Below are positions 44-63,838 of a stretch of 64,000 nucleotides of DNA, in pieces; position 1 is the first letter of the stretch, and every line of letters begins with the position of its first letter. Where the stretch lies: the IMG/VR virus record IMGVR_UViG_3300046675_000098, one strand, 5' to 3'. Under the pieces are notes generated by a model. The model had not been told where the DNA came from. It did not search any database and was given only the letters and a program-made list of their open reading frames with translations. A program made the position numbers and the translations under genes. The stretch comes from an uncultured virus (IMG/VR IMGVR_UViG_3300046675_000098) (Duplodnaviria > Heunggongvirae > Uroviricota > Caudoviricetes).

Positions 44-421
44 TCAGTCGTTGACGACGGCGCGGTTGGGGCGCCGCTTGAGACCTTCGCTCTCCCGCTC
101 GAAGCCGTAGCCGGTGCCGAAGGCCTGTGAGCCGTGGACGAACTCGCCCAGCATGCTCGGTGCCTCGATCCAGGTGGACGAGCCCATGTGGGCGCGCTCC
201 CGCATCGTCTCGGCCTGGCCCTTCCAGCACGTGACCGGCCGCTCGTTGGCGGTGTCGGCGTAGGCGCCACGGCGGAAGTCGTTGGGCACGTCAGTGTCAG
301 TGGCGATTCCCTCCTCGAAACGAAGGGGACCACGACGCCGATCGTTGCTGGCGATGTCGTGTTCGTACTGGGCTCCTCGGAACTTCTCGGGGCCGAGGGA
401 CGGGACCGGTGCGATGCCCAT
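44..421 (-). CDS. Hypothetical phage protein downstream of terminase
   Basis: 125-aa ORF with GGAGG RBS, co-oriented with terminase; no recognised domain. Confidence 0.7.
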   Translation of the reverse strand: MGIAPVPSLGPEKFRGAQYEHDIASNDRRRGPLRFEEGIATDTDVPNDFRRGAYADTANERPVTCWKGQAETMRERAHMGSSTWIEAPSMLGEFVHGSQAFGTGYGFERESEGLKRRPNRAVVND

Positions 422-467
422 GGGTGACCTCCGTGGGGTCGGTTGGCGGGATCATACGCCTGTTGGC

Positions 468-2084
468 TCAGCGAGACGCGAAGAACGGGCTCTCGCTCAC
501 TTCGACCGAGTCCTCGACCTCGGTCATGGACGCCGCACAGGCTAGGGCCAGGGAGTCAACGAAATCGTCATGGGCCTCCACCTCGTCTGGTGCCTCAACG
601 AGCATTTGCCCTGCTCGGAACACCTTGATGACGTCCGACATCTGTTGACGGAACCGGCGCCAGACACGAGTGCGGCGGGCCTTGGAGTGCCCCGGGTACA
701 CCATCAAGCGCCGGTCGATCAACGTCTGGAGGTTCTTCCACCGGGTACCCTGCGCCTTGGTGTCGGACCCCATGGGGATGACGACACAACGAGAGCCCAG
801 AAGCAGTTGGAGCCGTTCTGCGATGGCGGTACCCATGGCCTGTGCATCGACGGCGACGTAAGCGAGCCGGTAGTTGTCCAGGAAGTCAGCGATGGCGAAG
901 TACTGCTCCTCCCAGGGCTGGTTGTGTAGCTCCAGCCAGTCCAGGACTCGGTGCTCTCGGAAGCCAAACGGATCAGGGTAGTCCCAGTCCACCCAGCACA
1001 CGGTGACCACTGTTGAGTCACGAAGGCGGGCCGGGTCCACCCCGGCCACACATGCGCTCTTGTACCAGGAGCGCACCAGGGGCATGCTGGTGTCCATGAG
1101 TGAGTCCATGACCTCGTCGGTGACGAACTGACCTCGCTCCAGCAACCACTTGATGGCGTAGCTCATCTGGAACTCGTCGCTGTCCTCGCCCAGACGACGC
1201 TTCTCCTTGGAGATGTACTTCGCATAGAGGGGGTTGTACTTGGAGACGATCTTGTAGTCGTACTCGTAGTGGTTGTGCCGACGCATCCGGCTTGTGGCTC
1301 GACGCTTGTTGAGTTGAATCGCCCGGTAGAAGTCACCCTTCACGCGGCTCGGGGTGCCGATCTTGACCATGGTCCCCGCCGTGGCTGCCATCATGGGGTG
1401 CACCGACTTACGCACGACATCGGCGTCAGCATCCTGAGCTTCGTCTATGACGATGACGTGGTAGGTCTTACCCTCGATCTTGGCCTTCGGGTTGCACGTC
1501 TGTCGTCGGGCGAGGCTCCCGTTCTTCAGCCGGATGACCTTCCCCTTCCCCTTCACCTCGTCATCGATCTCGGGGTCCATCAGGAACTCAGTGGCGAAGT
1601 CACTCGTGAGCCGGTCCACGATGCGCCCATGCAGGGTTTCCGACTGGTCTTCGGTGGGCGCGAAGCACCCCACCCAGAGCCCCTTCTTGAACCGGGACAA
1701 CATGTCGAAGCTCAACGCCAGCTTTGGTAACAGCACCATGAGACCGGCGAAGGTGTTGGCCAGGGTCTCGGTCTTGCCCGCCTGACGACTGATGAGCGCC
1801 GTCAGTTCCTCGGCGTCGTTGAGGAGGATCGACTCGATGATGCGGTAGCTGACCTCGCGCTGGTACGGGTAGAAGGGGACCTCGCAGAACTCCTCGATGA
1901 AGAGGATGCACCGCTTGACGAGGTTGTCGATGAACTCGGCCGTTGACTCATCAAGCTCGATCTGATCGGCAGGGTCCTCGTCTAGAACCGCCTCGTCGTC
2001 CTCGTCGTAGACCGGCTCGTCCTGGGCCTGAAAGGCATCAGGCAGGCGCTCGATCAGATCAGTCACCACATCATGGTGGCACAA
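468..2084 (-). CDS. terL: Terminase large subunit
   Basis: PYQ Q-motif, Walker A SRQAGKT, Walker B VIVIDEAQ, coupling motif GTP, RNase H-like nuclease (GVDPA...HDDFVDS); exact start uncertain. Confidence 0.93.
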   Translation of the reverse strand: MCHHDVVTDLIERLPDAFQAQDEPVYDEDDEAVLDEDPADQIELDESTAEFIDNLVKRCILFIEEFCEVPFYPYQREVSYRIIESILLNDAEELTALISRQAGKTETLANTFAGLMVLLPKLALSFDMLSRFKKGLWVGCFAPTEDQSETLHGRIVDRLTSDFATEFLMDPEIDDEVKGKGKVIRLKNGSLARRQTCNPKAKIEGKTYHVIVIDEAQDADADVVRKSVHPMMAATAGTMVKIGTPSRVKGDFYRAIQLNKRRATSRMRRHNHYEYDYKIVSKYNPLYAKYISKEKRRLGEDSDEFQMSYAIKWLLERGQFVTDEVMDSLMDTSMPLVRSWYKSACVAGVDPARLRDSTVVTVCWVDWDYPDPFGFREHRVLDWLELHNQPWEEQYFAIADFLDNYRLAYVAVDAQAMGTAIAERLQLLLGSRCVVIPMGSDTKAQGTRWKNLQTLIDRRLMVYPGHSKARRTRVWRRFRQQMSDVIKVFRAGQMLVEAPDEVEAHDDFVDSLALACAASMTEVEDSVEVSESPFFASR

Positions 2085-2090
2085 CAGGTA

Positions 2091-2833: not shown

Positions 2834-2834
2834 G

Positions 2835-4335: not shown

Positions 4336-4557
4336 TCAGAAGAGTCTCATCTGAGCGGTCTCAGGATGCTCCTCGAAATACCCCTGGAACAGTTCCGTGA
4401 AGGTGGTGAGCAGAAGCTCCATGGCGTCAGTGTCAGTGCTGTCAACGAACCGCAACCTGTCCACGAAGCCCATCTCATCCACCTCCACGACGTCATGGTC
4501 GAGCCCGTAGCGGCGGAAGAGCTTGTTGATCTCAGCGGCGATCTGTTGCAAGGTCAT
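4336..4557 (-). CDS. Hypothetical protein ending in QMRLF
   Basis: ATGA overlap with whiB; acidic 73 aa. Confidence 0.6.
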   Translation of the reverse strand: MTLQQIAAEINKLFRRYGLDHDVVEVDEMGFVDRLRFVDSTDTDAMELLLTTFTELFQGYFEEHPETAQMRLF

Positions 4558-4835: not shown

Positions 4836-5307
4836 GCAACGCCTCCAGGGCCATCTCGGCGTGCGCGACGGCTTGGTTGATCTTGGTCGGGTCGATGATC
4901 CGGGAGTCCCGCCAGACAGACAGGTTGAAACCCGCCATCATGATCTCGACCTCGGCGTAATCGATCAGGTCGCGCAGTGGCAGCGACACGAGACGCGCAC
5001 TGACACTGACGGGGTCAGGAGGCTGGTGGCGGTTCCGACGTACCAGGCCCACGCCACGCTCCGATTTCCGCAGGGTCGAACTCCAGATTCCGAACGCCCA
5101 ACTGCTTGTACACGTCCATGTCGGGCTCAGGATTGGGGTGACACCGGCCCACCTGGATGGCCCTGTGACCGATCCTGAGCCGCACACCACTACCGAGGCG
5201 CCAGGGCTCGGCCCGCTCCCGGAACCAGGCCCGCGACACGATCTTGGATTCGTCGGTGTAGCTCTCCCACCCCACGTACACGCTACGGACGCTCTTGAGG
5301 GTCAGCA

Positions 5308-8217: not shown

Positions 8218-9521
8218 AGCTCGTCACCCAACGCTGCTCCCACTGCACCACATGCAAGGCCTCCCCGGCTCACGCCCTGTACCAGTGCGAGGCCATAATC
8301 AGCCCGCTCAGCCCGGTGGTCACCATGGAGGGCATCCGCCAGATCCAGGAGTCCCTAGCTCAGGAGACCCTGACTCAGGAGACCCTGAATCCGCACATCA
8401 CCAGGACGCGCATCGAGGAAGAGATGAAGAGGGTGAACGAGCTACAGGCCCTTGAGGGGCTGCTGCCCCGGGAACTACTGCCCCACCAACGAAGGATGCT
8501 GGAGCAGGCCTGGAACACAAACCGTGGACAACGGCTCTCAGAGCGGAACCCTCAGGAGCAGAGGGTCCCTCACCCTCAGGACATGGACCACGCGCCGAGC
8601 TTCATCAGCCCCCGGCTCACCAAGACGATCCAGACAGCCTGCAAGCAGGACGAGCGCATGGACTTCGCCTGGACCCAGATCACCGGCCGGGTCCAGTCAG
8701 GCCTGGACGACTACATCGTGCAGGGTGTCTTCGATACGTTGATTCAACTTTTCAAGATATGGGACGACGACAAGGCCCAGCGGGACGAGAGAAACCTCAA
8801 CAACATCCGTTCCCTCGGGGAGGCCGCTCGTGAAGCACTGGACGCCTTCGAGAGCGCCAAAGACCGAGAGAGCGTCCTGTACATGGTGGACACCATGGAA
8901 GAACTAGACGCCGCCCTCTACGACCTCACGCAGAAGGACACCTGATGCCCACTGACACTGACGATCCATGGCAGCACCCTGACACCAAGGCATGGCTGGA
9001 GAACACTCGCAAGAGGCTGCCACCCATGATCCGAGACTCGATGATCACCGTCTCCCTGGTACCAGATGAGGCCCGCAACTCTGACCTCAAGTTCGCCGTC
9101 GAGCTAGGGCTCAGCATCATGTTCGACAAGCCGATCCTGTGCGTTATCAAGCCTGGCATGCAGGTCCCTGAACACTTGGTGCGGGTAGCCGACCTGATCG
9201 TGGAGTGCGACTTGAACAACCCTCGGGACCGAGAGCGCCTGGGAGAGGCCATCGCCAAGTTCGCGAAACAGTACGGCGAACCCAACGATGACGTGGCCTG
9301 AGTGGATGACTCAACTGGAGGTTGACCGCATGCACACGATCCGGCTACGCCGACGCTGGTGGCGGCGGATCAACCTGGAGTGCATCGAGTGCAACGAGTG
9401 CCTGGCCAGTGGGCGCTCAGGGGAACCCTGGCTGACACCAGCCAAGCTGTGGGGCTACGAGCAGATGCACAAGGGTCGAAAGACTCAGGGTCCACCGATT
9501 CCGAATCAGGTACAATCCTGA
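8214..9521 (+). other. Three hypothetical CDS (8214-8945, 8945-9301, 9288-9521)
   Basis: Overlapping start/stop junctions and GC-rich third positions. Confidence 0.6.
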
Positions 9522-10654: not shown

Positions 10655-13600
10655 ATGGAGCACTACTTCGACCGCCAGGGAAACCCGATCGGCCTGTTCG
10701 CCTGGGCGCGCATGTTGGAAGCCGGGGACAATCACGTGGCCCAGGACTGGATCAAGGGCGTCCGGATCTCCACCGTGTGGCTGGGGCTCAACCACAACTT
10801 CAGCCTGGAAGGGCCACCACTGATCTTCGAGACGATGATCTTCTCCGAGACGGGCGACCTGGAGATGGACGAGTACTGCTGGCGCTGGTCCACCGAAGTG
10901 CAGGCCTTGGCCGGACACGACCAGGCGCTCGCCCTGGTGCGGGATGCCATGGCCCGCAAGTGTTAGGGTTCTACTTCCTATGAGCGCACCATGGAACCCC
11001 AGCGGGTACCGCGCCCCCCATCGGAACCACCTCCTGAACCGCAGCAAGTGGCACCGGGACAAGCAGTTCCCCTGCTGGTGCGGCGAGAGCCTGGTGCCGC
11101 GCTACCGGATGTTGGTGGATTGCTGCGTTGACTACCTGTACATAGTGGGACCACACGTGTACCTAGACCTGGAGGAGAGCAGTGAGTCCAGAGCGGATCA
11201 GGGAACGGTGTCAGTACCTGATTGAGCGAGGCCAAGGGGACGAGCCCATCTGGACGAGCGCGCAGATGGAGGACATCGTGGTGGCGTACATGCGGGTCCT
11301 TGACGAGTATGCCCGAATCCGCACGGGCATTTCTTAGGGCTATACTGGGGACATGATCGATACGAACGATTTCGGGCGGCGGTTCGCTGACCGGCTCTTC
11401 GACATCTCGGCTGAGAACCAAGGGATCAGCCGGATCGAAGTAGTGCGGCGCTACCACACGGACAGCAAGTACAAGGGGATGGTGGACGCCATCGTGTGGG
11501 CCGCAACGACGGTGATCCAGTCGATCGAGCAAGACGGCTGGGACCCCCTCGGCTCACTGCAAGAGACCTTCCAGCACGAGGTGTCGGGCCTGCTGGACAT
11601 CGATGCACCCGGTTCCGAGCACTGACACTGACAATGGCCCTCGTTCACCTTCAAGCCCTACTACCCAGTTCTGATGGTACTGGCTGGTACGCCGCCGCAG
11701 AAGGCAACATCTGCCGGTGTTCCACCCGCCACTGCCAGAGGCTCGCCGTGGCCTACCACCACCATCCCGGCACCCGTAAGCGGATGTGGCGGAACAAGTA
11801 CCGCTGCATGGAGCACCTACCCCCCGGCCTCAACGTCATGTACGGACGGGTCTGGCTGGACCGACCCCCCAAAGAGTCCGTTCGGCCCACATCGCAGGGT
11901 TCCGCATCGTAGTAATCTCTAGCCATGGCAAGCGTGGCAGAGACAGAGAAGCGCAACCGGTACTGGTTCGAGAACTGGCAGGACTTCACCTGCCAGGTGG
12001 TGGTCTCCACCCCGGCTCAGCGCTCCCTGCACGTCGGGGCCATCGTGAGCGGCCTCTTCGCCTCGATCCCGATCCCCTACCAGAGCCGGGACACCGACTC
12101 GGGCACCTTCGTGATCCGCGACGGGTGCTTCTGGGTGTACTCGCCCCGGGAGACCTACTGCTGGCCCCTGAGCGAGGCCCAGGTCGCTCCCTGCCGTGAC
12201 GGCGTGGAAGTCCGGTGCCCCAACCACCCCGTGGTCACCCTGCGGGGACCGGTAGCAGCCCCGCTCGCTGGTGCCTACGCCAGCATGGGGCGCTTGGAGG
12301 TCTGATGACCTCTGAGGTTCCCATCTACCTGATCCTGTTCGGTGCCCAGGGCTACCGCAGCCACCCGATCCGCTCGATCCGCCACATCGGCATCGAGCGG
12401 ATCGAAGAGGACGGACTCATGGTGGTACCACGTTGCAACGTCCACTACCGAGGCTCGAAAGACCTCAGCCCTCGCCGCTTCCGTGAAGCCGAGGGTGTAG
12501 AGCAGGACTACCCGGTGTGCAAGCGCTGTCTGGCCTGGAAGGAATACGACTACGGCGTATGACCAAGCACAACGTGTTCGTGAACGACAAGGTGCATGTC
12601 CGACGCCGCCAGTGCGAGACGTGCATCTTCGGGAAGAACTCCCCGATCAACACCGAGCGTCGCGACGAAATGGTCGCCAAGTGCGGTGACGAAGGTGTTA
12701 TCCCCTGTCACAAGCACATCCACCAGGATGCGCCGATCGAGCCGGTCTGCCACGGCTTCTACGCCCTCAAGGGCAACATGACCCTGCGCCTGGCGGATGC
12801 GCTCGACTACATCGAATGGTGGGACGACTGATGTCGGCGGCTAGCGAGATGACGGCGGTGCTCAACCGCATGCAGGCCTTACTGGATCACCTCAAAGCAG
12901 AGCCCTGGATCGAGTACGACACGATCTTGGTGCGCTCCGAAGTGATCCTGACAAAGCGGGCCTTCACAGAGCTACAGAAGGTCGCCAAGGCGATCAGCAA
13001 GGTCAGGCCCGAAGACACGAGAGGGCCGGGTGTGCCGTGGTACGAGGGCGTACTGGACGACATGGTATGAGCACCGCCCACCACCGCACCGACTGGGAGG
13101 TCTACGCCGTCAGCGCCTGCTGGGTGGCGATGTGGGTCGTCCTAGCCATCTGCTTCACCATCCTGGCGATCTACGGCACCATGTTCGGCGTGGCCACGAT
13201 GAAGGCGCACTGGCCATGAGCCGCAACAACCGACGCGGTGCAGGCCACAAGAAGCCCGCGCCGAGTGACCGGCGTATGACGCCCCACCATGACCGAGAGG
13301 TGCGGTATTGGACGCCAGGTGAGGATGACGACGTGCCCTTCGGGTTCCACGAGACGAACCTGGCCCCCTGGGAGCAGCCCTACGCCCTAGAGGACGACAA
13401 GGAGCAGGAGTGATCCGCTACTTCCTCCAGGGTCGCTACGGCCCGTGGTACGAGATCGAGGAGATGCAGTGGGCCGAGGCAGTGGGCCTGCCCGTGGTGA
13501 CTCAGCCCGACGACTACCTCTACGAGGAGTACGACCTGCCCCTGATGCGCTGTGTCGTCGTCAACACCGCCAAAGCCTGGAAGGACGACATCAAGCGAGA

Positions 13601-14184
13601 GTTCCCCGGGCTCCAGGACTTGATCTGGTTCCCCGACATGCGCTGCGGCGAGTGCGGAGGCCGTCTGGTGGACGAACTGGCCTCAGAGCCCGACAAGCGA
13701 TACCCGCGCTACGTCCACGCCACCGGCATGATGGACCGCCATGGTGCCTGGCCCGTGGAACAATGGGACTGATGACTGTCGCGCTGATGGGCCTCGATGA
13801 CCGCGTGATGCACCTGCCGAGCGATGAGCACGGCAAGGCGCAGTGCGGCGAGCGCATGCGCGACCCCTGGGCGGCTGGCCCTCTGGAGACGATTGCTCAG
13901 TCGGCTTCCGAAGCCTGTGAAAGCTGCTTCGATTTCTAGCCACTGACACTGACAACTACGGTGCCGCCGTGCACGTGATGTTGGTGGAGCGCCTGGACCG
14001 CCACAACCGGGTCGTGGTAGCACATGGCACCGTCGATGGTCAGGCCGCAGGCGCGTTCGTGCGCTCCCTGGTCACCGACACGATCTCGGCCGAGTGTGAG
14101 GACGGCTGGGATCTGTGGCGCTGGTACGTGCGTCAACACAAGGGCCGACGTCAAGTCAACAAGGTCAACATCTACCGCGCCTAG
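10655..14184 (+). other. Run of about 14 small plus-strand hypothetical CDS, many Cys-rich (e.g. 10655-10966, 11353-11625, 11925-12305, 12560-12831, 13410-13772)
   Basis: Abutting ORFs with ATGA/TGATG junctions; leaderless -10 boxes TATACT at 11341 and TAATCT at 11913. Confidence 0.6.
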
Positions 14185-14351
14185 CTGTCAGTGTCAGTGG
14201 CCCATAGTGGCCCTTATGTCAAGTCGGGCGCTGGTAGCCGCTCAGCGCGTCGTGGCATCGCTTCCGTTCGGTGCTGTCATGATCGGTGATCGGACGCCCA
14301 CATTCGGGACAGCACGGTTCGTCAGTCACGCCGCGACGCTAGACGCTGTCA

Positions 14352-16394: not shown

Positions 16395-16410
16395 TTGCCC
16401 CCCAGCACGT

Positions 16411-17030: not shown

Positions 17031-17161
17031 CCCCCTAACCTAGCCCCTGGTACCACCCAGCAACATAGGTCGGAAGGCCCCTTGGTAGGTAGTAGGGGCG
17101 CTCCTGGCCGTGGAAGGACTTGCCGGTCCCTACCCCGTAGGAGCGCCCCTGGAACACTCTA

Positions 17162-18228: not shown

Positions 18229-18270
18229 ATACGGTGTGACCAGGTTGTCAGTGTCAGTGCTCGCCAGGCG

Positions 18271-20844: not shown

Positions 20845-23800
20845 TTAGGAGGGGCGGCGGGCCGTCACCACCAGGGGCACCGCGAGACCGTGCGCCACAG
20901 GGCGCCGCAGGCGTCCGGAGCACGTGTCGAACGTGGTCACCAGCACGTGGTCACCACGGTCCTCGACCTTGTGGACCGTGGAGACGTGCGCGAGCACGTC
21001 CCCCGGCCGCAGGTCACCGGCCAGCACAACCGTGCTCACGCCGTCACCTCGGCGTTGCGGCGCGCACGCCGCAGCTTGTCTTGCAGGCTCATAGCCTCAG
21101 CGGCCAGCGTGGGCCAGGCGTTGGCCTGGCAGTTGTGCCACTCGCTCGACAGGGCGAGGATCAGCGTGCTCATTTCGCCCGCTGTGAGCGTGATCGTGGT
21201 GGGTGCGTTGGTCATGAGAGTATCTTACCTCCAAGAGTTGAGTCAACAAATAGGCCATTCGGCCCTTTGGCTCCAAGCTCCAAGGGCTAGCCCTCCCACT
21301 CACTGAGGAAGGCCAGCACGTCAGCCGTGTCCTGTGACGTAGCTCCAAGCACGCGCCCTGTGATGGTGCACGCATCGCCCGCACCGGTCACCGCGTACAG
21401 GTCGCCTCCAAGGTCGTAGAGCACGTGGAAGTTGTACGCACACATGAAGTTGCGCGATACGAAACGGCGGCGCAAGGCAGGCGTGACAGGGACGTCACGC
21501 TCGATCCGCGGCCAGGCGTCAGCCGGGAAGGGCCGCAGGTCCAGGTCCAGCATCACGGCACACGGTTGGCACGTGGGCACGTCACCCAGGATCGGATGCG
21601 AGACCACGCCCGCAGCGGGGCGCACGCACCGGGCGAACCACTTGCACGTGGTCACTTGACCGGCTCCAAGGGCGCCGATGCGAACAGGTTGCTTGCGTAG
21701 TACACGCGTCGCGACTGGTCGCCGTCCCGGTCCAAGAACCGAAAGCCCTTGTAGTTGCCGGTGTCCATGAGCACGTCCTCGATCATGCCAGCGACCGCGT
21801 AGCGGGCCTGCACCTGGTCATCGGCCGAGTTGGCGAGCATGTTGTTGGCGAAGTCGAGCACGCGCTTGACGTTGATCGTCTTGCGAGCCTTGACGTTGGT
21901 GCTGGTCGAGTAGGGCATGAGAGTATCTTACCTCCTTGTTGACTCAACTACTATGGGCCATTTGGCCCTGCTTCTGGCGCTCGTACACAGCGCTGGGATG
22001 TTGTGCCATGGCGCACGCCCTGCACACAGAGACACCACCCATGCGGGTCGTAGCCTCCTGTGAGCACGGACGCAGCCACTCGTCAGACGACTGGCAGGTC
22101 ACCGGTACACCACCCGGACCTCACGAGCCTCTAGGCACTCCTTGACTGTGAAGTCAGCGCGCACCCGGCCACCCTTGTGAGCGAGGTTGTAGCCGACAGC
22201 GAACGTCGTGATGCCGCGGTTCTGTAGCACTCGGATGGCCGAGAACGTAGGCAGCGGTTGGCCGATGTGGTCGGACCAGCCGAGACCGGGGTAGAACACC
22301 TGTTCGATGCGAGCATCGCTCGCCCTCGTGTTGAGGTTCCGACGCGACAGGTGGCGACGGATGGGCAGCGGGGGAGTGTTGTGATTGGTCATGAGATGGC
22401 TTTCATCTGCGTGATGGACCGGCGTGCGCTCTTGCGGCCGGGATGCGGACAGGTGACGATCGCGGTGGGCGAGCACACACCGATGGTGTGCTGGCAGGTC
22501 GGGCACTGGTAGGTGGTCATGAGTACAGCTTACTTGACTGTTGACTCAACACCTATGGGCCATTCGGCCCTAGCTACCGTCAGCACGTGAGCGAAATGTT
22601 GGTGCAGCCGGTCAGCAGCGCGCAGCGCCGCGGCCTCGTTAGCCTCCTGTGAGACCAGGGACGAACGAACCGCCAGGCCGGTCGAGTCGAGCGTGACAAA
22701 GCCGACGTGGTAGCTCACGGTGCCACTCTCGTAGGTGATCGAAGCAGCATCGATGATGCCACCTGGTACGTCGTAGGTCACCAGTGTGGTGTACGTGCTC
22801 TCAGTCATCCCTCGCCCCACGTCTGCACCACGTCACCGGGGAGCACGCGGAACGTGCCACCGCGGATCGTGCCGAAGTCGATGGTCAGCCACTTGCGGCC
22901 GACGATGGTCACGGTGCCGAAGCACACCACGCCGAACATGGCGGGATGGAAGGCCTCGACCGTGTCACCGACCTTGAAGTCGGAGAGTGTGAAGGTGGTG
23001 GTCATGGTGTCCATTCTAGTGAGTAGTTGAGTCAACAGCTATGGGCCATTCGGCCCTAGAGCAGACCCTCGGACGTAAGCAGCTTCACCAGGTCCGCGAG
23101 TCCACCCTCTAGCTCCGTGGCATGCGAGACGAACGCAAAGCGCTCACCGAACGTGAAAGCAGCGTTCACGAAGCAGCAGCTACCCCCGGCCATCATGCCG
23201 ACGTGGCCGATGGCCTTGCCCTCGCGCATGATGGCAGCGCTGGACTTGTTCTTGCGGCGAAGCGTCAACATGGTACCAGTGTACCGGACGTGTTGACTCA
23301 CCACCATGGGCCATTCGGCCCCTTATCTGGTGGTACCAAGTGCTGTCAGTGTCAGTGCGCTCGTCGGACCGTAGCGAGCACCGCAGGCCAGGGCACCACC
23401 CCCAGACTCGGTCCACCATGTGGCGACAGGGGACCAACCTGGTCGCTACGGCCCGAACAACGCACTGACACTGACGGTCTAGAGCCCTTCCTCGTTGGCG
23501 AAGCGCTGCATCATGTTGACGCAATCGTCGCGGTAGCGCTCAGCAGCACACCACGCACTCTCGCCCTTGAACGTCTTGCCTCGCGGCCACGTGGTGGCCC
23601 ACTCAGGGCGCTTGGAGACGCTGACACGGTGGGCGCCATCCTCGTAGCGGTAGCCACCACGTGAGTCGAGCAGCGGCCCGGTCTCGATCTGCACGGCGCC
23701 GATGCGTGAGCCGTAGTAGCCGTTCACGTTGGTGCGGGCGATCGTGCTCCAAGGGCCTGGTGTGCTGTAGCGGGTCATGGGATCAGTCTACCGATCCTGT

Positions 23801-26800
23801 TGACTCAACGCATGAGTCATTCGGCTCATTGCATGCGAAGGCAGGATCGCACTCGTCCTCGCACGCCGCGCAAGGCAAGGGGCACGGTTCATCGTGGCGA
23901 GGATCGTGACAGTGCATCATCGTGCGCTCCAAGCGGCACGCTTGGCCTCGTCCACGCGCATCCGGTGCTGGGCCTCCAAGACCTGGGACTCCAAGACCTC
24001 ACGCTCCGTCCAGCGCTTCACCTCGGAGGCGATCTGGTCAGCCGTGTCATTGCGGCCGATCATGGTCCACACCATCATCGAACCGTTGACGAACGCAGGC
24101 CACGCGATCATCTCGTCGGCGTGCTTCTTGCACGTCACGAACGTGGCCCACCGCCATCCCATGGTGTCGGCCTCGTCCAGTACCACGTCGTTCAACAGGC
24201 AGACGACGATGCGGTTGGCACGTGCGCTGCACCGGCCAGAGCCCTGGCACAGTCGGCCAGCGGCCCGGTTGCGCTCGCAGCGCTCGTATGTCTCTTGGCT
24301 CACGCTGTATCCCATGAGAGTCAGTCTACACTCTCTGTTGACTCAACGCCTGAGTCATTCGACTCATTGTGGATGCGAGCCTCGGGGCCAAAGCCGCACC
24401 AGCACACCCGCATGCCGTACAGATCACAGGGATTGAACCGATGGGTAGCTGACGCGGCCGGGAAGTCATCCGGCGTGACCACGGTGAGCATGGTGGAACG
24501 CTTGGGCCGTTTCGGCTCATTGGTGGTCCAGCCCTCGTCGCTCTCGTTGTCGCGGTACTGGATGACCACCAGGGCACCGGGATTGATCTCCTGGTAGATG
24601 GCAGCCGCACTACGAGGGTGGTAGGCACTCGTGGGATCGAACGGGCCGTGCTGCATGGAGCAGCCATTGACCAGCACCATGTACTGGTAGCGGACCATCT
24701 TGTCGGCCATTAGAACGTGCCCTCGTGCTCGGTGTAGTCGATGCCATCGAGAGCCGCAGCCATCTCGGGCGTGATCAGGGTGTAGCGCTGGATATAGACG
24801 CCATGGTCCACGTCCTCGTCAGTGATGACGACCTCACCCGAACGGATGCGCTGGACTAGCTCGTCAGCGACCTCGTAGTCCTGGATGGTGTCCAGAGCGA
24901 AGGTATCCCAATCGCTCACGAGGTTGACAACCTCGCGGCCTCCAAGGAACTCATGCAGGAAGGCAAAGGGCGCACCGTCGTGGACACCAGGATCACAGCC
25001 GTCGCCATCGGTGTTGTCGAGCCAGATCTGGCCGTCGAAGCGGACGACAGAGCCGCACTTGTAGCAGATGCTCGGGGTGATGGTCATGAATCCTCCTGGT
25101 CGTCGTCCCACTCGTCAGGAGTGGGACCGTTGAAGCGGCGCCCGTTGATAGACGACGCCCGGAGACGCTGACCATCACGGAACGCTTGGCGGTCCGCATC
25201 GTTCCAGCGGTGGAGTGTGCGGCTCATGTTGAACAGTCTACTCCAAGAGTTGACTCAACACATGGGCCATTCGGCTCATTCGGCGCAGACCTCGGCCCAC
25301 TCCAAGGGGAACAGAGCCACCACCGCATCGTCGGACCCTTCACAGGCTCGCAGGTAACGCTTGATCAGCGCTGACTCGTCCTCGGTGCAGTCGATACCGT
25401 CGCGCTTGCGCTGGATGGTGGCCGTCAACTCACTGAGGATGACCACGTTCGGGTTGGTCTCGGGGCCGTCACCGACCACCATGCCGGTACAGGCCTCGTG
25501 ATGGTCACTCACCACGCAGCCACACTCGGGGCACAGGGCCTCGCAGGGGTAGGGCGCGTGGTCCATCTCGTCGTACGAGGCGCCGCACGTAGTGCAGAAG
25601 TCACCGCCACCAGTGTGAGCATGATCCTCGCCCCGCACGTCCTCGTAGGCCTCGATGCGGCCATCCAGGAGCGCCTGACCCGTTATTGAGCCGGGGCCAA
25701 CGATCTGGTTGTTGTTGGCGATGCGCCGGTTGACGTCAGCGATCATGGCGAGCACCGTGGCCCTCGTGTCCAGCAAGGCGTTGGCGTAGCCCGCCTGGTT
25801 GGCCCGCTGCACGTTGTTGCCTGCCTGGTCGTACTCACGGCAGCGCTGCTCGGCGTAGCGAGCCTGGGCAGCCAGGCTGTCAGCTAGTTCTTGCAGGTTG
25901 GTGGGGTTGGTCATGATGAGAGTCTACCTCCCTCTGTTGACTCAACGCCTGAGTCATTCGACTCATCCTCAGGCTTCCAGTTGAACGGGCGACTGAGGCT
26001 CAGCTTGCCTGCGTTCACAAGCTGCTGGATGGCACCAGCGGCCTCGTCCGAGACGTTGGCCTCACGGATGACGTGGAGCAGGTAGGCAGCGTCCAAGGCC
26101 CGACGACGCTGGGTAGCGGCCCTCTGCTCAGCCTGTTCGGCCTCAAACTTGGCACGCTGGGCGCCGATGCGCTTCTGGTAGGTCTCGAAGTCAACGACCT
26201 GGCGCTTGTTGACCAGGTAGTACTGACCCTCTCGGTAGGTGCTCGGCTCACCCTGAGCCTTGTCGGCCTCGACCGTCACGACCAGGACGTAGTCACCGCC
26301 CCGCGACTTGTAGCCGTACCAGTCCTCGATGGACTGGCCTTGCCTCATGTGGACGGGGCCGGGACCACTGCCACTCATGTTGGCCCGAACGACGCGCACG
26401 GTGGTCCACTGCGACTTGTCGGCATCCCAGCCAGTGCGGCCGGAGCGGTTGATCAGGGCGTAGACCTTGCGGCCCTCCCACATTTCCTCGTATTTCATGA
26501 TGTAAGTCTACCTAGTTTCGTAGGGTTCGGGAATGGGTCATTCGGACTGTTAACTCAACACCCTCCAAGGGTGTCAGTGTCAGTGCCTCACCACGGCCCG
26601 CACAGACCGTGATACCGCTCGGTCAGGCCGGAGCCGTCACAGATCGACCAGCGGTAGCGGTAGACCTCGCCCTGGGCGATCGGCCCGGAGCAATCGTCGC
26701 ACTGGTACTCCTTGCGGGCACGCTGTAGGCGTGTCACCACCAGGACCGTGCCGACTTCCTCGTCGTGATGGACCCGAAGCTCGCTCATCCGTACGCCTCC

Positions 26801-28106: not shown

Positions 28107-28162
28107 GATCACAGTCTACCCGCCATTGTGTTGACTCACCATGAGCCATCCGGCCCATCTTG

Positions 28163-28217: not shown

Positions 28218-28553
28218 GTCAGTGTCAGTGCTCAGGCCAGCACGAAGAACGCCAGCGTGACCACCACCATGGCCGCAAACAACACCTTGCCAGCCAGGCG
28301 ATGGCGTACTGACCAGGGGTAGCGCTTGCGGTAAGCACGGCGCTTCACTCGGTACCGGCGCTTGACGTCACGGTCCCAGGCTCGGCGCATCTTGCGCTCA
28401 CCACGCCGTGTCTCGACCACGTGCATCCGGCCGTAGACGTCTACAGGCACCTTGATCGAGCAGAGGGGCACGTCGCGAGAGGACCCAGCGGTGCCGTTGA
28501 CGGGAGGAGGAGGACCAGTCAACGGCACCGATGAGGGTGGGGGAGGAGGCAAG

Positions 28554-30673: not shown

Positions 30674-30898
30674 CGGTTCCAGTGTAGCGGCTTTGGCACC
30701 CTCTACACATGGGCCAAACGGCTCATTCGACTGTCAGTGTCAGTGGGCGAATCGTGATGACTCACCATGACAGGAACGTGTGTTCTTACCCCTCCTTGGG
30801 GGTGCTGCGTGGTGCAGGCTCGGGCGGCGCAGCATCGAGCACAGCATCGAGCAGTTCGCCGGGGTTGGGCAGGGGCTTGACGTCGAGCGGTTCGTCAT

Positions 30899-37954: not shown

Positions 37955-37991
37955 TCGTGACTCAACACCCACTGACACTGACAGGCAGGCC

Positions 37992-38491: not shown

Positions 38492-38905
38492 ATGGCAACG
38501 ATTCTCAGATCGTATGACTGGTCACAGGTCAGCCGAGCCAACAAGCGGGCCAGGAGCCGGAGCTACCCCTGGGATGACTGGTTCGATGGCCGCATCTGGC
38601 AGCTAGAGCCGAGGGTGGACTTCGATGGTCCTGCCGTCAGCTTGGAGCGGGTCATCCGGACATCGGCCAACCGTCGCGGTATCAAGGTCCGCATCCGCAT
38701 CGATGGCGACGTCGTCGTCGTGCAGCGCCATGAGGACGGCGATCCCTTCCGGACGATCACCAAGTCCCCGAGCTTGAAGTCGATCAAGGCGGCGAAGGAG
38801 GCCGAGACGAACGGCCACAAGCCCGAGCCGGTCAAGGTCTCGGCCACGAAGAAGGTCGCTCCCGCCACGCCTCGTAAGCGCGTGTTGAAGCGCGTGAGCG
38901 TCTAG
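38492..38905 (+). CDS. Hypothetical basic protein
   Basis: YPWDDWFDG motif, Lys-rich tail, own promoter cassette. Confidence 0.7.
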   Translation: MATILRSYDWSQVSRANKRARSRSYPWDDWFDGRIWQLEPRVDFDGPAVSLERVIRTSANRRGIKVRIRIDGDVVVVQRHEDGDPFRTITKSPSLKSIKAAKEAETNGHKPEPVKVSATKKVAPATPRKRVLKRVSV

Positions 38906-38940: not shown

Positions 38941-39175
38941 AGAAGCCAGGAACCCGCAACCGCATTTGACCCGAAGCACCGCCCACCGGACTCACAGAGT
39001 CCAGGGCACCGCTGGCAGGCACAACCGGGCGCGTAAGTGTTCCTGGCTTCTTGCGTTGTCAGTGTCAGTGCGTGCTATGGTCCCGTACCAGGTGCAAGGG
39101 CTGTCCGATCCCTCCACCAAGGGTCGTGCTCCCCAGCTAAGGACTACCGCCAGTCCGAGACGGCCCTTGCACCTG
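38941..39175 (+). ncRNA. Two adjacent putative structured elements
   Basis: Closing stems AGAAGCCAGGAAC/GTTCCTGGCTTCT (38941-39050) and CAGGTGCAAGGGCTGTC/GACGGCCCTTGCACCTG (39089-39175) with internal hairpins. Confidence 0.45.
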
Positions 39176-39292: not shown

Positions 39293-40636
39293 GTGATTAC
39301 CGACCACCTTCCCGATTGGATGAGCACCTACGTCAGCGAGACCGCTGCGGAGTTGCAAGTCCCGATCGATGCCGTTGCTCTGCTGAGCCTCGGCGCTCTG
39401 TCCGCTGCCGTGAACGGCGGCGCCACTTCGCTCCCGGTCGATTCCTGGGCCGAGCCGTGCGTGCTCTACACCGTCGCCCTGCTGGCGTCGGGCGAGGGCA
39501 AGTCCCCGGCCTTCACGAAGCTCTTGGAGCCTGTCGTGCGGGCGTTCGAGGAAGTCACTGGCGTGCACCAGGCCACCGATGCCAAGACGCAGACGATCCG
39601 CAACCGGGTCAATCGCAAGCACATCAAGAAGGTCGAGAGCGATGCGCTGCGGGCCGTGGCCAAGGGTTCGATGAGCCTGGAAGAGGCCATCGGGGAAATC
39701 GCCGCCGCCGAGCGGGCCGTCGCCCTGTTCAACAACACCAACATCCCGCTAAAGGTCGTCACCGACGTGACGCCCGCTGGTCTGCTCGATGCCTTGCAGG
39801 ACAACAACGGTCGCGTTGTGATCGCCAGCCCGGAGGCCGAGAGCCTGATGAGCTTCCGGGGAGGGTCCAAGGAGGCCATCCTTAAGGGCTTCGATGGCGA
39901 GACCATGACACAGGGCCGTCGTGGTACCGGTGAGGTCACCATCGCCCGCCCGACCATCACGGCGATGCTGGCGATGCAGCCAGCCATCCTCGGGTCGCTG
40001 GGCGCCGACATGGTCAACCGTGGCGTGATGCCCCGGTTCCTGATCAGCTACCCGGAGTCCATGGTGGGCCACCGTGAGGCTCGCACCGTCCTGGTCTCGC
40101 CTGAGGCTGAGGCTGAGTACGAGGCCGAGATGACCAGGATCGTGACCGCCTACAGCGAGCCACGGCCGAAGCTCATCACCTGGGACCCCGCTGCCAAGCG
40201 TGAGATCGGCACCTGGCGGGTCGAGATCGAGCCGTTGCTGGCGCCGAACGGTCTCTTGGCGTCCATCGCCGCATGGGGTTCCAAGGTGCGTGGGGCGCAC
40301 TTCGTTCGCCTGGCGGCGCTCCTGGGGATCGCCAACGGCCGGGACTTCGTCAACGTGGACGATTGCGTCCAGGCCAAGGCCATCCTGCGCTCGCTCATGA
40401 TCGACGCGAAGCGGGCGTTCGGGGCCATGGGGGCGTCGTTCTCCGACGATGACGTGGTGCACCTGATGAGCATCGTGGAGCGCCTTCCGGAGCGCACGTT
40501 TGCCAAGCGCATGATCATGCGCCGGTCCAACAGGCTTAAGACGCCCGACCGGGCGGGCCAGGCTCTCGACAAGGCCGTGGAGGAAGGTCTGCTGACCTAC
40601 GACGAGGGCACCAAACAGTGGACCTACGTCGAGTAG
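39293..40636 (+). CDS. DUF3987/YfjI-like P-loop protein
   Basis: ASGEGKSPAF, TDVTPAGL, LKGFDG, MQP, RGVMPRFL. Confidence 0.8.
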   Translation: MITDHLPDWMSTYVSETAAELQVPIDAVALLSLGALSAAVNGGATSLPVDSWAEPCVLYTVALLASGEGKSPAFTKLLEPVVRAFEEVTGVHQATDAKTQTIRNRVNRKHIKKVESDALRAVAKGSMSLEEAIGEIAAAERAVALFNNTNIPLKVVTDVTPAGLLDALQDNNGRVVIASPEAESLMSFRGGSKEAILKGFDGETMTQGRRGTGEVTIARPTITAMLAMQPAILGSLGADMVNRGVMPRFLISYPESMVGHREARTVLVSPEAEAEYEAEMTRIVTAYSEPRPKLITWDPAAKREIGTWRVEIEPLLAPNGLLASIAAWGSKVRGAHFVRLAALLGIANGRDFVNVDDCVQAKAILRSLMIDAKRAFGAMGASFSDDDVVHLMSIVERLPERTFAKRMIMRRSNRLKTPDRAGQALDKAVEEGLLTYDEGTKQWTYVE

Positions 40637-40668: not shown

Positions 40669-40681
40669 GCTGCTGTCAGTG

Positions 40682-40957
40682 TCAGTGCCGGTGCCGACTG
40701 GTGTGACACCCACGGCACAGCGGTACCACGTCGTTCTCGTGGCCAGCGTCGTAGCCACGGTGGTGGTGCCACTGATCAGCAGGTTCCCAGCAGTCAACAC
40801 AAGCGTGTAGCCGGACCGGAGGCCGACTCCGAGCTACACGCTTGTGGATGGCGTTCCGACGCCTGCGTTCTTGCTCGCTACCGGGGCCAGGCTCCTGCTC
40901 AGGCCAGTCCTGCCGACCCGTCCAAGAGGGGTCCAGAGGGTGCTCGACTACAGACAC
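40682..40957 (-). CDS. HNH-like zinc-binding nuclease
   Basis: CVDC...WHHHRGY...VVPLCRGCH. Confidence 0.7.
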   Translation of the reverse strand: MSVVEHPLDPSWTGRQDWPEQEPGPGSEQERRRRNAIHKRVARSRPPVRLHACVDCWEPADQWHHHRGYDAGHENDVVPLCRGCHTSRHRH

Positions 40958-45676: not shown

Positions 45677-46290
45677 CAATCCCACTTCTCCAAGGAGCGC
45701 ACCTTGTCACGATAGGTGGGTGGTGCGTCAACAGCGTCCGGGTGCGAGAACCGCTCCGTATGTGCTACCACACGGTCCCACGGGATCTGACTGCGGGTGC
45801 GGGCGTAGGGGTCCACGTTGGACTGGAACCAGTTGTCCCCCTGGTGCACGGCCATCTTGACGATGCGACCCCCGCCGACCACACGGCGGGGCATGTAGCT
45901 GTGCGCCGTCGCCGCCTCGACTCCGGCGTTGGTGCCCTCCCAGCCTGGCTCGATGGCACCCCGCTCGTCGGACTGGACGTAGCCCCGGCTCTTGGCCTGT
46001 TGGAACTCGTCCTCGCTCATGCCCCGGAACACGTGCGTGACATGCCCCGGCAGCGGCGACTCCTTAGGGCCACTGCCACTGACGCCCACGTCCCTGATCC
46101 CCGGCAGCCATGATGACTCACCAAGCTGCTTGATGAGCCGCTGACGCTTGAGTGAGGAGAACGCATGATCAAGGTCACTCGCCTGCATGCGAGTGTTCAA
46201 CCAGTCGGGCGCGTCAGTGTCAACAGGAGTCGAGTGAGGACCCGACTCGATGCCGGGGAAGTCCCGAAGCTGCGTGCCCTTGGGCTGCAT
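45676..46290 (-). CDS. Possible ADP-ribosyltransferase-fold protein
   Basis: HVFRGMSEDEF..AKSRG resembles the ART R-motif; the rest is weak. Confidence 0.4.
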   Translation of the reverse strand: MQPKGTQLRDFPGIESGPHSTPVDTDAPDWLNTRMQASDLDHAFSSLKRQRLIKQLGESSWLPGIRDVGVSGSGPKESPLPGHVTHVFRGMSEDEFQQAKSRGYVQSDERGAIEPGWEGTNAGVEAATAHSYMPRRVVGGGRIVKMAVHQGDNWFQSNVDPYARTRSQIPWDRVVAHTERFSHPDAVDAPPTYRDKVRSLEKWD

Positions 46291-48969: not shown

Positions 48970-49036
48970 GAGACGACCCTACTCCATCGTTGTGTCATCA
49001 GGTGCACTGACACTGACAGGTGTCAGTGTCAGTGGC

Positions 49037-53272: not shown

Positions 53273-53408
53273 TCCTCCTCCTCCTCGGGGCTCACCTGGC
53301 CGTACTCGTCCTCGTCGTACACTTCCAAGGGCACTGACACTGACGGGTCGTCACCCTTGTCAGTGTCAGTGCTCTCTTCACGCCGACGCGGTGGCAGTCG
53401 TTGACTCA

Positions 53409-61553: not shown

Positions 61554-61964
61554 TCATGCAGGGGACCGCACCAGACGACGACGGCGGGGCTGCGGAGGCA
61601 CATCGATGGCTGCGAGGGCGAGGTCGTTCCAACGATTGACCGTGGTCAGTAGGTAGTACTGACCCACATCTGTCGTCCCTCGCCGCTTGATGATAACGGC
61701 GCCCTGGAAGAACCCAGCGTTCTCACACTGAGCGTCAAGCTCACGGATGTAGGTGCCGATTGTGATCGTCTTCTCATTCTTGGCTTCGATCATCACCGGC
61801 ACGCCGTCAGCCAGCCTGATGTCTCCCTCGTCCCTCCTACCCTTTTGGGTGATGCGCCTGGCGTAGGGCCAGCCGTTGATCTTCAACCATGAGACGGTGT
61901 GGGACTCGTGTTCGGTTCCCCTCTTCTTCCCCGGGTTAGCCACGCTCAACAGCCGCCTCGACAC
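61554..61964 (-). CDS. PD-(D/E)XK Holliday junction resolvase
   Basis: KKRGTEHE...DEGDI...IEAKNEK. Confidence 0.8.
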   Translation of the reverse strand: MSRRLLSVANPGKKRGTEHESHTVSWLKINGWPYARRITQKGRRDEGDIRLADGVPVMIEAKNEKTITIGTYIRELDAQCENAGFFQGAVIIKRRGTTDVGQYYLLTTVNRWNDLALAAIDVPPQPRRRRLVRSPA

Positions 61965-62406
61965 CCATGACGTGGACCCAGGCGTCCGTCAGCAGGGCGC
62001 TCTGGCGGTAGGTGAACCCGGCATCAGAATCATGACGCTGAAGGCACCAGTACTCGTGGGCCACGAGGTGACCGATGCCGCCGAGCACCTCCCGCAGGCC
62101 GCACTCCCGGTGCATGGGCTGACGGTCAAGGTCGTAAGCCCCCACGAATAGCTCGCCACACAGCACGCAGTTCATCGTGTGAACTCCGTGCCCCGGTCGT
62201 CCTCATCGAACAGCGTCGGCATCGACTCGATCAGCCTGGCACCCTCCAAGCGACCGAGCACCCGTCCCACCTCGATGGCGTTGGCGAACCAGCCCACCAT
62301 CGTGCCCTCTTCCAGGCCGTACGGTCCCGTGCCACCGACCACGAACCCGGCGAAGATGCGACAGAACTCTGAGGCCCACACTCGGGCATCAATGGTGCTG
62401 TGAAGA

Positions 62407-62892
62407 TCAGGTGCTCCAGCTTGCGGCTCGTCCTTCAACGGGTGCCCTTCCTACTCGTCGGGTCAGTTCACGTGACAGCAGAGCGGCGCCCCGCTCCATG
62501 TTGTTCGACAGCACCGTCAACATCTTCACCCGTGCGTGGATGACGTCGTAGCGTGACTGCGCCGCCAACACCTCCGGGTCCAGATCCTTCTCCGCTCGCA
62601 GCACCGTGACCTTGGCACCAGGGTCCCCTGACGTCATGAACATCGCCGTCAGCACCTTGATCTCAGTCTCGATGGTGGCCTCCTCGATCTCAGCCTCGAC
62701 GCGACGCACGTCGATGAAGTTGGCCCACGCGATGTAGGCAGCGAAGATCTCCATGAGCCGCTGGCTGCCAAGGTCCGGGAGGTTGAGGGGGATCTGAGGG
62801 ACGCCTCGCTCAGGCCTTCCGGGCAAGGGCACGCCGTCGTAGCTTGGCGTCGGCCTTGATGACAGGCGTTTGAGCGGCCTCGTGTTTGTCAT
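62407..62892 (-). CDS. Helical/coiled-coil hypothetical protein
   Basis: Helical ORF ending LLSRELTRR, next to the exonuclease. Confidence 0.6.
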   Translation of the reverse strand: MTNTRPLKRLSSRPTPSYDGVPLPGRPERGVPQIPLNLPDLGSQRLMEIFAAYIAWANFIDVRRVEAEIEEATIETEIKVLTAMFMTSGDPGAKVTVLRAEKDLDPEVLAAQSRYDVIHARVKMLTVLSNNMERGAALLSRELTRRVGRAPVEGRAASWST

Positions 62893-63838
62893 GGTTCCGT
62901 ATCTTCCAACATGTGTTGCGGTACTTGCAACCACGGCACGTGGACACCTGCTCGTCGGTGGCCCACGCTGGCCGTGGTGGAGGGCGCAGCGTTTCGAGCG
63001 CCTTGGTCACCAGGTGAGCACCTTCCAAGGCCCGCTCCACCAGACGGTCGTTGAGCTTGACCCGGAACTCCTTGACGTCCTGGTTGGGCTTCCACTCGTA
63101 GAGGAAGATCATCTCCGTGGGCACCGGTACCTCAGCCACCCCGAGCGAGGCCATGTACAGGTACAGCGCGCCCTGGCGCACGTGCACAGGGAAGGGCCGC
63201 TGGATGTCCATCCAGATCTTGTCCAGCGTCTCGTTGTTGAGGTAACGCTCGTACAACTCGGGCGCGTCGAAGCGGAGGCTGTTGATCCCGATGGACTTCA
63301 CCTCCAGCAGACGGAAGGGCTCGCTGTCATCGAACCAGAGCCCACCGTCAGCGTGACCCCCGAGATGGAGGTGCGGTGCGGTGAGTGGTACCTCCTTGTA
63401 CCGAAGGAACTCAACAACAGCACCGCAGTAGAAGCACTCCTTCGGTGCGCGGTCCCACCAACGGCACTGACACTGACGGCACTCGAACACGCCGTAGAGC
63501 ACACCCATCTCCCACAACCACGTCTGCCACTTGCGGTGGATGGTGTGGCCCTCGATCCACACGTTCTCCAACCGGAAGCTGGGGCTGGCGCTCTTGGTGC
63601 CGTCGATGGGGATACCAGCCAGCCGGTAGTAGTCAGCCCGGTAGCACCAGTCCGGCTTGCACATCTCCGAGGGGTGCAACAAAGTCTGGTCCCGCTCTTC
63701 GTCGGGGATCACAGCCTGTCTGAGCACGTGTTTCTTGAGGTCGTCCAGGATGATGTTGCGGTTGCCCACCGACAGGTCCCGCATCTCCCGGAGCACCCGG
63801 TGAGAGATGCTACGTTCAACCGGACGACCCTCGCTCAT
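62810..63838 (-). CDS. Cas4-like PD-(D/E)XK exonuclease
   Basis: HPSEMC..WCYR, GHTIH, GHADG, LEVKS, Q..LY, C-terminal CRGCKYRNTC. Confidence 0.85.
   Translation of the reverse strand: MSEGRPVERSISHRVLREMRDLSVGNRNIILDDLKKHVLRQAVIPDEERDQTLLHPSEMCKPDWCYRADYYRLAGIPIDGTKSASPSFRLENVWIEGHTIHRKWQTWLWEMGVLYGVFECRQCQCRWWDRAPKECFYCGAVVEFLRYKEVPLTAPHLHLGGHADGGLWFDDSEPFRLLEVKSIGINSLRFDAPELYERYLNNETLDKIWMDIQRPFPVHVRQGALYLYMASLGVAEVPVPTEMIFLYEWKPNQDVKEFRVKLNDRLVERALEGAHLVTKALETLRPPPRPAWATDEQVSTCRGCKYRNTCWKIRNHDKHEAAQTPVIKADAKLRRRALARKA

Follow-up and report, generated by a model that had tools for sequence, protein, structure and literature searches.

A 64,000-nucleotide stretch of DNA from an uncultured soil phage of the Caudoviricetes (IMG/VR record IMGVR_UViG_3300046675_000098; the whole stretch is called the window here) contains 24 letter-perfect copies of a short asymmetric word with the consensus CAYTGACAYTGACR. 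The feature is very probably real and strongly selected. It is restricted to one clade of myoviruses, it fills every peptide-compatible coding position of this phage in both orientations, and its exact variant is shared with an unrelated small siphovirus (G004). From these patterns the word is most likely a protein docking site. Our preferred reading, held tentatively, is that it serves as a private, non-polar docking tag read by a protein of the phage clade for genome handling. We infer the binding, a phage-encoded reader, its job and the exploitation of the tag by the siphovirus from sequence comparisons.

Number, form and reality of the copies

The initial annotation of the window, made from its letters, had reported 24 exact copies of a 13-mer, CACTGACACTGAC, and this count was borne out. 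Nine copies are on the plus strand and 15 on the minus strand; the first begins at 290 and the last ends at 63477. Allowing one mismatch yielded 25 matches, the additional one at 46071, so that 24 perfect copies stand against a single near copy. Dinucleotide shuffles (n = 100) searched with up to one mismatch gave a mean of 0.33 matches and a maximum of 2. The word extends beyond 13 nt, because its flanking bases are constrained: C or G precedes and A or G follows all 24 window copies, and A or G comes directly after the word in 86 of 88 sites from eight sequence sets. No conserved position was found farther downstream over the 88 sites, and the flanks are unrelated.

Three further contigs extend the window. 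Two (G001 and G003) overlap it at 99.99–100% identity, and the third (G002) agrees with it in site spacing and in its terminase, which is identical. Together they give a known genome of ~113 kb with 35 copies (14 plus, 21 minus) and add genes for sheath, capsid, DNA polymerase A, primase, DnaB and RecA. An adapter or assembly artefact, a possibility raised in the initial annotation, does not account for the word, because contigs from run X13 match it letter for letter and diverged relatives have variants of it. The X13 contigs, from a run not flagged as a possible source, cover all eight copies in 23100–33000 with zero differing letters; the sequencing runs used for this check may share one campaign. 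A look for RNA data sets containing the phage listed none. At 27422, a contig of one strain or run (X24) has an additional 6-nt GTGTCA unit, an in-frame slippage expansion seen at a depth of 4 that may be an error.

Spacing of the sites resembles random placement (coefficient of variation of the gaps, 0.94 and 0.97), and even spacing was rejected. A promoter reading, with the word as tandem -35-like hexamers, was also rejected, as no -10 position is conserved. Single copies formed no hairpin in six of six foldings and inverted pairs folded trivially in two of two, with no structure common to the folded sites. Full-text searches for the word and six variant or reverse spellings returned no phage paper by title, within a coverage that leaves out most subscription papers and bioRxiv supplements.

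Distribution and drift among relatives

The window comes from an apparently lytic actinophage myovirus related to Streptomyces phage BRock, a virulent myovirus (PMC7453282), to which its terminase large subunit is 46% identical. From this relatedness and the presence of WhiB genes we infer a host among the Actinomycetota. G006 (118 kb, complete) has 30 copies of a degenerate form of the word, CAYTGACAYTGAC, G019 (60 kb) has nine, G010 and G013 have six each, and three contigs of 5–8 kb have two, two and three; two clade members of 6 kb carry no copy. Many more clade members are represented by proteins only (43 and 36 homologues). No match was found in G007 (117 kb, complete), G008, G014, G015, G466 or BRock (scripts covered the first 100 of 112.5 kb of BRock and 80 of 83.6 kb of G014). 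A terminase tree of 29 rows unites the motif-bearing myoviruses in one clade (support 98/95), and the word was not found in its sister clades. One of these motif-less sisters, G008 (L228–L231), has a different dispersed word, TGWGATAC, with 44 copies versus 3.5 expected.

Base preference at the two variable positions is lineage-specific. All 35 copies in the window phage are C/C, while G006 has 16 T/C, 10 T/T, two C/T and two C/C (T at position 3 in 26 of 30), and G019 has T/T in seven of nine. A check of positional conservation, proposed in the initial annotation, matched orthologous sites at 8 of 32 testable positions in G006 (null 1.5), 4 of 11 in G010 (null 0.6) and 1 of 12 in G019. Orthologous positions are thus kept above chance in G006 and G010, yet most turn over.

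Placement and orientation of the sites

The sites and the genes needed to follow the argument are listed below, with sense and antisense referring to the local direction of transcription.

290..302, minus: 13-mer inside gene 44–421; sense; invariant ATDTD peptide; the identical codon position in G010 also has the word
468..2069, minus: terminase large subunit, phylogenetic marker; 46% identity to the BRock terminase
4426..4438, minus: 13-mer inside gene 4336–4557; sense, STDTD
4998..5010, plus: 13-mer 4 nt beyond the stop of 5015–5308; antisense; same place and orientation in G006
8950..8962, plus: 13-mer in the opening codons of gene 8945–9301; sense
11620..11632, plus: 13-mer providing the TGA stop of 11353–11625; likewise in G010
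13941..13953, plus: 13-mer 1 nt beyond the stop of 13772–13939; faces 14187 over a convergent junction
14187..14199, minus: 13-mer at the convergent junction of plus and minus operons; reads with the facing minus-strand operon
18247..18259, minus: 13-mer 11 nt beyond the stop of the SNF2 helicase gene; match in G006
23345..23357, minus: 13-mer, intergenic; sense; directly upstream of a promoter cassette
23463..23475, plus: 13-mer 3 nt beyond the stop of 23479–23778; antisense
26573..26585, minus: 13-mer 2 nt beyond a stop; sense
27425..27437, minus: 13-mer inside gene 27368–27712; sense, ATDTD
28218..28230, minus: 13-mer 1 nt beyond a stop; sense
29369..29381, minus: 13-mer inside gene 29186–29845; sense, ATDTD
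30733..30745, minus: 13-mer providing the TGA stop of open reading frame 30740–30898
32915..32927, minus: 13-mer 21 nt beyond a stop, or within a weak 36-aa open reading frame (ALTLT); sense
37970..37982, plus: 13-mer 15 nt beyond the stop of 35966–37954; sense; match in G006
38492..38905, plus: 137-aa neighbour of the DUF3987 helicase
39058..39070, minus: 13-mer, intergenic, upstream of the DUF3987 gene; antisense
39293..40636, plus: MCM-like helicase of the DUF3987 family, stand-alone, C-terminal winged helix predicted; a weak candidate reader or client
40675..40687, minus: 13-mer directly beyond the 3' end of the DUF3987 gene; sole site matched in both G006 and G019
46071..46083, plus: the single one-mismatch copy of the 13-mer
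49005..49034, both strands: inverted pair 49005(+)/49022(-); intergenic, 4 nt between copies
53332..53371, both strands: inverted pair 53332(+)/53359(-) inside gene 53269–53409 (TDTD and SVSV); its sense copy has a match in G006
63465..63477, plus: 13-mer inside the Cas4-like exonuclease gene; antisense, RQCQC

Codon-preserving resampling, a control suggested by the initial annotation, gave a mean of 0.1 and a maximum of 1 copy in 60 runs, compared with 10 observed inside called window genes. Gene calls came from a simple custom caller with a few hand corrections, and gene-based counts can move by a few sites. Every coding position of the window phage with a compatible peptide carries the word (16 of 16), in sense (11 of 11) and in antisense (5 of 5). 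Compatible positions are filled at 14 of 17 in G006, one of two in G019 and zero of one in G004. The motif-less relatives fill none of theirs (G007 0/5, G008 0/3; 0/8 in total); seven of these eight are sense and one is antisense. Copies had been said to impose short peptides on the genes that hold them, which is not always so. The copy at 290 arose by synonymous change, because the ATDTD peptide there is invariant across eight of eight aligned orthologues, BRock included. Some copies are likewise synonymous changes in an ancestral peptide, and others lie in variable linkers and termini. The genes that hold copies include lytic ones (major capsid, RecA, helicase and exonuclease).

Strand bias was also confirmed as first described, with 18 of the 24 window copies sense (16 in or between same-strand genes, plus 14187 and 40675 at convergent junctions). 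The antisense copies are at 4998, 23463, 39058, 49005, 53332 and 63465, and three of them belong to inverted pairs, again as noted initially. Over all sets, sense exceeds antisense by 56 to 27 among 83 classifiable sites. Among 87 sites from all sets, the excess is significant inside genes (28:9, P = 0.003) and not significant in co-directional intergenic gaps (21 sense vs 13 antisense, P = 0.23). A TGA stop can be obtained from the sense orientation only (as at 11620 and 30733). The bias is real, and most of it appears to be coding compatibility, because coding opportunities run 7:1 in favour of sense and the stop codon is sense-only. There is no polarity along the replichore: strand counts over the known genome and in G006 (19 plus, 11 minus) track local gene direction.

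The initial annotation had called the word independent of the promoter cassette, and this largely holds. Eight of the 24 window copies have the cassette word no more than 100 nt away (4.4 expected, P about 0.05), as do four of 30 in G006 (3.4 expected). The cassette itself, an early-gene element found in the window between 19800 and 39300, runs from an imperfect dyad centred on GAAT through GTTGAGTCAAC to a -10-like hexamer; examples are at 21239, 23294, 24339, 25251, 25938, 28132, 35866 and 39190. Its dyad word is lineage-specific (TGASTCA in the window phage, TGTSACA in G006) and is found in G004 too. A third word, GGTACCA, is enriched in the window phage (124 vs 45 expected) and mildly in G004 (12 vs 5.7), not in G006.

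Family scans of the window recovered terminase, tail and fibre genes, an SNF2 helicase, the DUF3987 protein and the Cas4-like exonuclease, together with two WhiB genes (4554–4835 and 16122–16394), four RHH proteins, Ku (33871–34674), a TGT-like protein and SpoVS (60599–60922). The TGT-like gene (40982–42340) may point to 7-deazaguanine DNA modification. A KTSC gene lies at 5308–5721. A tRNA-Pro(GGG) is encoded at 2834–2908, and the matching place in G006 has tRNA-Pro and tRNA-Ala. In its replication module, contig L208 has, at 16247–19117, an opposite-strand gene for a 956-aa GSDH and PKD protein.

The word in an unrelated siphovirus

G004 (18.9 kb) and L418 represent a small siphovirus with 21.5 kb of sequence in total. 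Its terminase is ~32% identical to those of 15–17 kb Arthrobacter and Gordonia phages. Likeness to the myoviruses is confined to tail-fibre-like proteins, one of which is 65% identical to its counterpart in the window phage and 39% to that in G006. Among the genes of G004 are those for a tail tube of its own and a replication-initiator-like protein, and one of tape-measure size. PHROGs searches identified none of 29 G004 and L418 proteins as a polymerase, primase, helicase, integrase or lysin; the two contigs do not make up a closed genome. The terminase genes of L418 (195–2001) are inverted relative to the portal gene.

All five copies in G004 are the exact C/C variant, and all lie outside called genes. 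One follows the tail tube gene, two form an inverted pair at a convergent junction, and a second inverted pair, downstream of the replication-initiator-like gene, encloses a second word, GTTGACTCAAC. This second word, GTTGAGTC, occurs five times in G004 versus 0.8 expected. It is enriched in the window phage and G004, and not in G006 or G008, which use TGTSACAA and TGWGATAC, respectively. A clade contig (L422, 102–146) has an inverted pair around the G006-type second word, a composite layout like that of G004.

Exact-word scans of viral contigs revealed no further unrelated multi-copy phage among the matches listed (a G+C filter kept 59 of 249 loci, and records were counted for 47 + 5 loci). 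G475 and G434 were rejected as carriers, being coding or simple repeats, as was G473, a low-G+C phage with two copies in tail genes. An unrelated 26-kb phage contig, G021, has two spacer-less palindromic versions of the word (16416 and 19531). A metagenome scan for inverted pairs returned 44 stretches, of which seven map to the myovirus clade, and no many-site host contig.

Searches of host genomes

Among 401 sampled Actinomycetota genomes, no genome had more than three exact copies, and the total was 49 matches versus 14 for the reversed control. Forty of the 49 matches were inspected; 38 lie in open frames of at least 150 codons, and no locus is shared. Allowing one mismatch, 86 genomes of one order (that of one top WhiB match) had no motif excess. 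The word is therefore not enriched in the 401 + 86 genomes searched, and the true host may lie outside that sample. The second word, GTTGASTCAACA, gave at most four matches per genome in the 401, and searches of the same genomes with the PKD/GSDH protein and WhiB gave distant matches only. These tallies include genomes marked unpublished (25 of the 86 and at least five of the 401), which were used for negative tallies only. A scan of GTDB genomes for inverted pairs yielded 22 stretches; those from actinobacteria, and several of those from alphaproteobacteria, are perfect palindromes next to TetR-like genes, the latter recognised by eye without a family scan. Eight such palindromes have a 13-mer variant as their half (L394, L396, L397, L402, L407, L387, L406 and L408). 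These TetR-adjacent palindromes of Actinomycetia and Hyphomicrobiales are probably ordinary operators, unrelated to the phage word.

Candidate reader proteins

Seventeen gene rows are present in the window phage, G006, and G019 or G017, and not in G007. DUF3987 stands out among them because the only site matched in all three lineages adjoins its 3' end, it was not found in four of four motif-less records searched, its model is MCM-like, and its family has been described. Searches recovered it from the window, G006 and G019 and from none of those four motif-less records (G007, G008, G015 and G537). The predicted model (pLDDT 87) matches MCM helicases (best E value, 2e-5); no sequence match was found in the PDB. 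Published accounts describe the family as SF6 helicases with a C-terminal winged helix and one member in Corndog (PMC4889955), and the activity of another member (PMC11724360). DUF3987 is the second helicase of the phage, as the phage also has DnaB with a primase. The DUF3987 helicase module is the leading named candidate for the reader, an assignment that we nevertheless consider improbable. Its 137-aa neighbour (38492–38905) reached a top Z of 5.2 in a fold search with no Foldseek match at E 0.001, and its distant homologues sit in motif-less phage records.

The candidate at 7641–8039 gave no usable Atlas match. Ku was rejected as a reader, being found in motif-less L752 too, and a MerR-like gene was rejected as common to motif-less phages. 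The initial annotation had proposed the four RHH proteins of the window as binders. Those genes exist, and searches of the motif-bearing partial records G019, G017 and G004 did not recover them, which leaves the proposal unsupported. WhiA, whose target core is GACAC, had been suggested through the presence of this core in the 13-mer, and does not fit: the core is absent from eight of nine G019 sites and 12 of 30 G006 sites.

Proposed explanation and its alternatives

We propose that, during lytic growth, a sequence-specific DNA-binding protein inherited within the clade would dock on CAYTGACAYTGACR in either orientation throughout the phage genome. Selection would then favour the maximal number of copies, placed in the gaps directly past stops and at every coding position with a permissive peptide. 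The protein's job might be to load replication or recombination machinery, or to mark and organise phage DNA as distinct from host DNA; polar transcription termination would not be its job. The initial proposal of a selected, genome-wide protein-binding type of site gains support from the comparisons made here, and genome organisation or replication/recombination loading is the class of function that we tentatively favour. G004 would have copied the variant of the window phage and, by co-infection, would use the same machinery in a common host. A more elaborate version, which seems rather unlikely, is that the tag is read by machinery with which the myovirus clade itself processes DNA, such as the MCM-like helicase module, and discriminates phage from host DNA. 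The siphovirus would then reproduce the current tag letter for letter in its origin region and where its operons meet, so as to exploit that machinery, and the tag's drift between lineages would record an arms race.

Several observations weigh against a docking tag read by a phage protein. The candidates screened, with remote-homology searches covering 24 candidate genes, yielded no identified reader, and the co-occurrence of DUF3987 with the word is a single gain on the tree, common to 16 other rows. Of the 16 intergenic window copies, 13 lie within 25 nt past a stop (4.1 expected), which fits a role in transcription equally well. Near-stop copies number 10 same-strand and four opposite-strand in the window and 23 versus 10 among the 87 sites of all sets, and this residual sense preference is evidence for a transcriptional function. 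No regulatory or replication gene is common to G004 and the myoviruses in 21.5 kb, a situation that a host reader explains without a helper; the incomplete G004 could also carry its own copy of a reader.

We rank the phage-read tag first, a host-read site as its main rival and a stoperator-like roadblock third. That the reader is a host protein is a serious alternative, though we consider it the less probable one. The myovirus clade and the siphovirus would each have multiplied the protein's optimal site independently, to recruit or titrate it, and base preference would drift with differing hosts. The exact variant and the second word are common to these two unrelated phages, and their shared genes, all tail-fibre-like, suggest a common host. 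Against a host reader are the scarcity of the word in the 401 genomes (among which the host may be unsampled), the location of 38 of the 40 inspected matches in long open frames at no shared locus, the lack of excess in the 86 genomes of one order, and the GTDB pairs, whose actinobacterial members are TetR-adjacent. A host Chi-like word, another of the initial suggestions, finds no support in the at most three copies per genome of that sample, which may not include the host.

A stoperator or insulator function is less probable again. A phage regulator at the site would block read-through at gene ends and convergent junctions and separate the early promoter cassettes. The proportion of copies outside genes (16 of 24, 4.2 expected; 51 of 87 over all sets; eight of 24 in genes), their proximity to stops, the 18 of 24 in sense and the pairs at convergent junctions in the window, G013, G019 and G004 all suit it. 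Silencing of the mycobacteriophage L5 type, put forward in the initial annotation, finds little footing in the remaining data: sense copies lie inside lytic genes, antisense opportunities are as fully used as sense ones, the bias in co-directional gaps is not significant, and single copies form no hairpin. L5 gp71 had no tblastn match better than E 0.13 in nine sequence sets, complete G006 included, and no phmmer match over threshold, in a phage genome of which ~5 kb may be missing. Tyrosine integrase (PF00589), serine recombinase (PF07508) and ParB (PF02195) were each found in none of five records, again including complete G006.

A purely mutational origin, in which slippage of a 6-nt CAYTGA unit and gene conversion homogenise the word with no binding, is very improbable. 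The word is a 6-nt tandem repeat, and the X24 contig with an added unit would be an instance of such slippage if it is not an error. Mixed halves, which are not a product of duplication, are commonest in G006 (16 of 30), however, and half-sites are not enriched in the window phage after full sites are masked. The synonymous origin of the 290 copy, the unrelated flanks and the retention of orthologous positions also weigh against it. We give even less credence to an RNA-level signal, such as a processing or protein-binding site on transcripts. The overall sense excess and the closeness to gene ends would fit; the five of five antisense coding opportunities filled, the lack of shared structure and the 7:1 sense opportunities already present in motif-less relatives do not.

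Comparison with known systems

Chi, KOPS and DNA uptake sequences are asymmetric words of 5–12 nt that are abundant in the host chromosome, and Chi and KOPS are polar along the replichore. They are written into coding sequence where tolerated and are read by DNA-processing machines. The word described here is likewise short, asymmetric and placed in coding sequence wherever tolerated. Unlike them, it is 14 nt long, is not enriched in the sampled hosts and is distributed over both strands of the known genome (14 plus, 21 minus). To our knowledge, actinophages repeatedly show dispersed perfect repeats of no known function (Cluster O, EC, EG and others), and a reader is known for Cluster A only.

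Operators and stoperators of Cluster A are described for L5 gp71, Bxb1 gp69 and TipsytheTRex in passages of two papers (PMC3029335, PMC9283540). In those accounts they resemble the word in being 13-bp and asymmetric, in numbering 24–34 per genome, in lying mostly in short intergenic gaps and in a consensus that varies between lineages. They are also described there as one-way relative to transcription, degenerate and read by the two-domain repressor of a temperate phage. The copies here are letter-perfect, with eight of 24 inside genes and selection for both orientations; six of 24 are antisense, and searches found no gp71-type repressor with helix-turn-helix and Stoperator domains, integrase or ParB. 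The word thus fails the three defining features of Cluster A stoperators that were tested. By analogy, it behaves more like the 17-bp repeats of Cluster O (Corndog), for which the relevant passages give more than 30 invariant copies, about one-third of them coding, no meaningful orientation and no integrase (PMC4351075). The Cluster O sites are palindromic dyads, whereas this word is an asymmetric 6-nt direct tandem repeat shared with an unrelated phage. Corndog has in common with the window phage genes for a Ku-like protein (PMC4351075) and for an MCM-like helicase of the DUF3987 family (PMC4889955), a coincidence of two cases that is no test. Start-associated or intergenic motifs of Clusters K, EC, EF, EG and EI are also lineage-specific actinophage repeats, with readers not known in the text that treats them (PMC7302621). 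Start-associated sequences and their extended forms (SAS/ESAS) are placed there at a fixed distance upstream of starts, on the ribosome-binding site or directly before it, unlike copies that lie past stops or inside genes.

The pairing of G004 with a large lytic phage recalls the Streptomyces satellites and helpers MiniFlayer/MindFlayer, MulchRoom/MulchMansion and Ando/AndoPrime (PMC10690885, PMC13587820), in which a small capsid-encoding actinophage also lacks a recognised polymerase or primase. G004 differs in having its own tail tube, tape-measure-sized gene and initiator-like protein, and the passages on satellites mention no DNA word common to a pair. A title listing of the literature on satellites and helpers with a shared motif gave nothing relevant.

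Three properties set the word apart for further work. That compatible coding positions are saturated whichever way the word reads speaks against polar silencing. The drift of base preference along a resolved tree provides natural specificity variants for finding the reader. With the exact copy in an unrelated phage, the choice between host and phage reader can be put to a direct test, and one phage mimicking the DNA tag of another becomes a possibility. Membership in a class of dispersed, largely unexplained phage repeats is the known part of this finding, and the sharing of the word with an unrelated phage is the surprising part.

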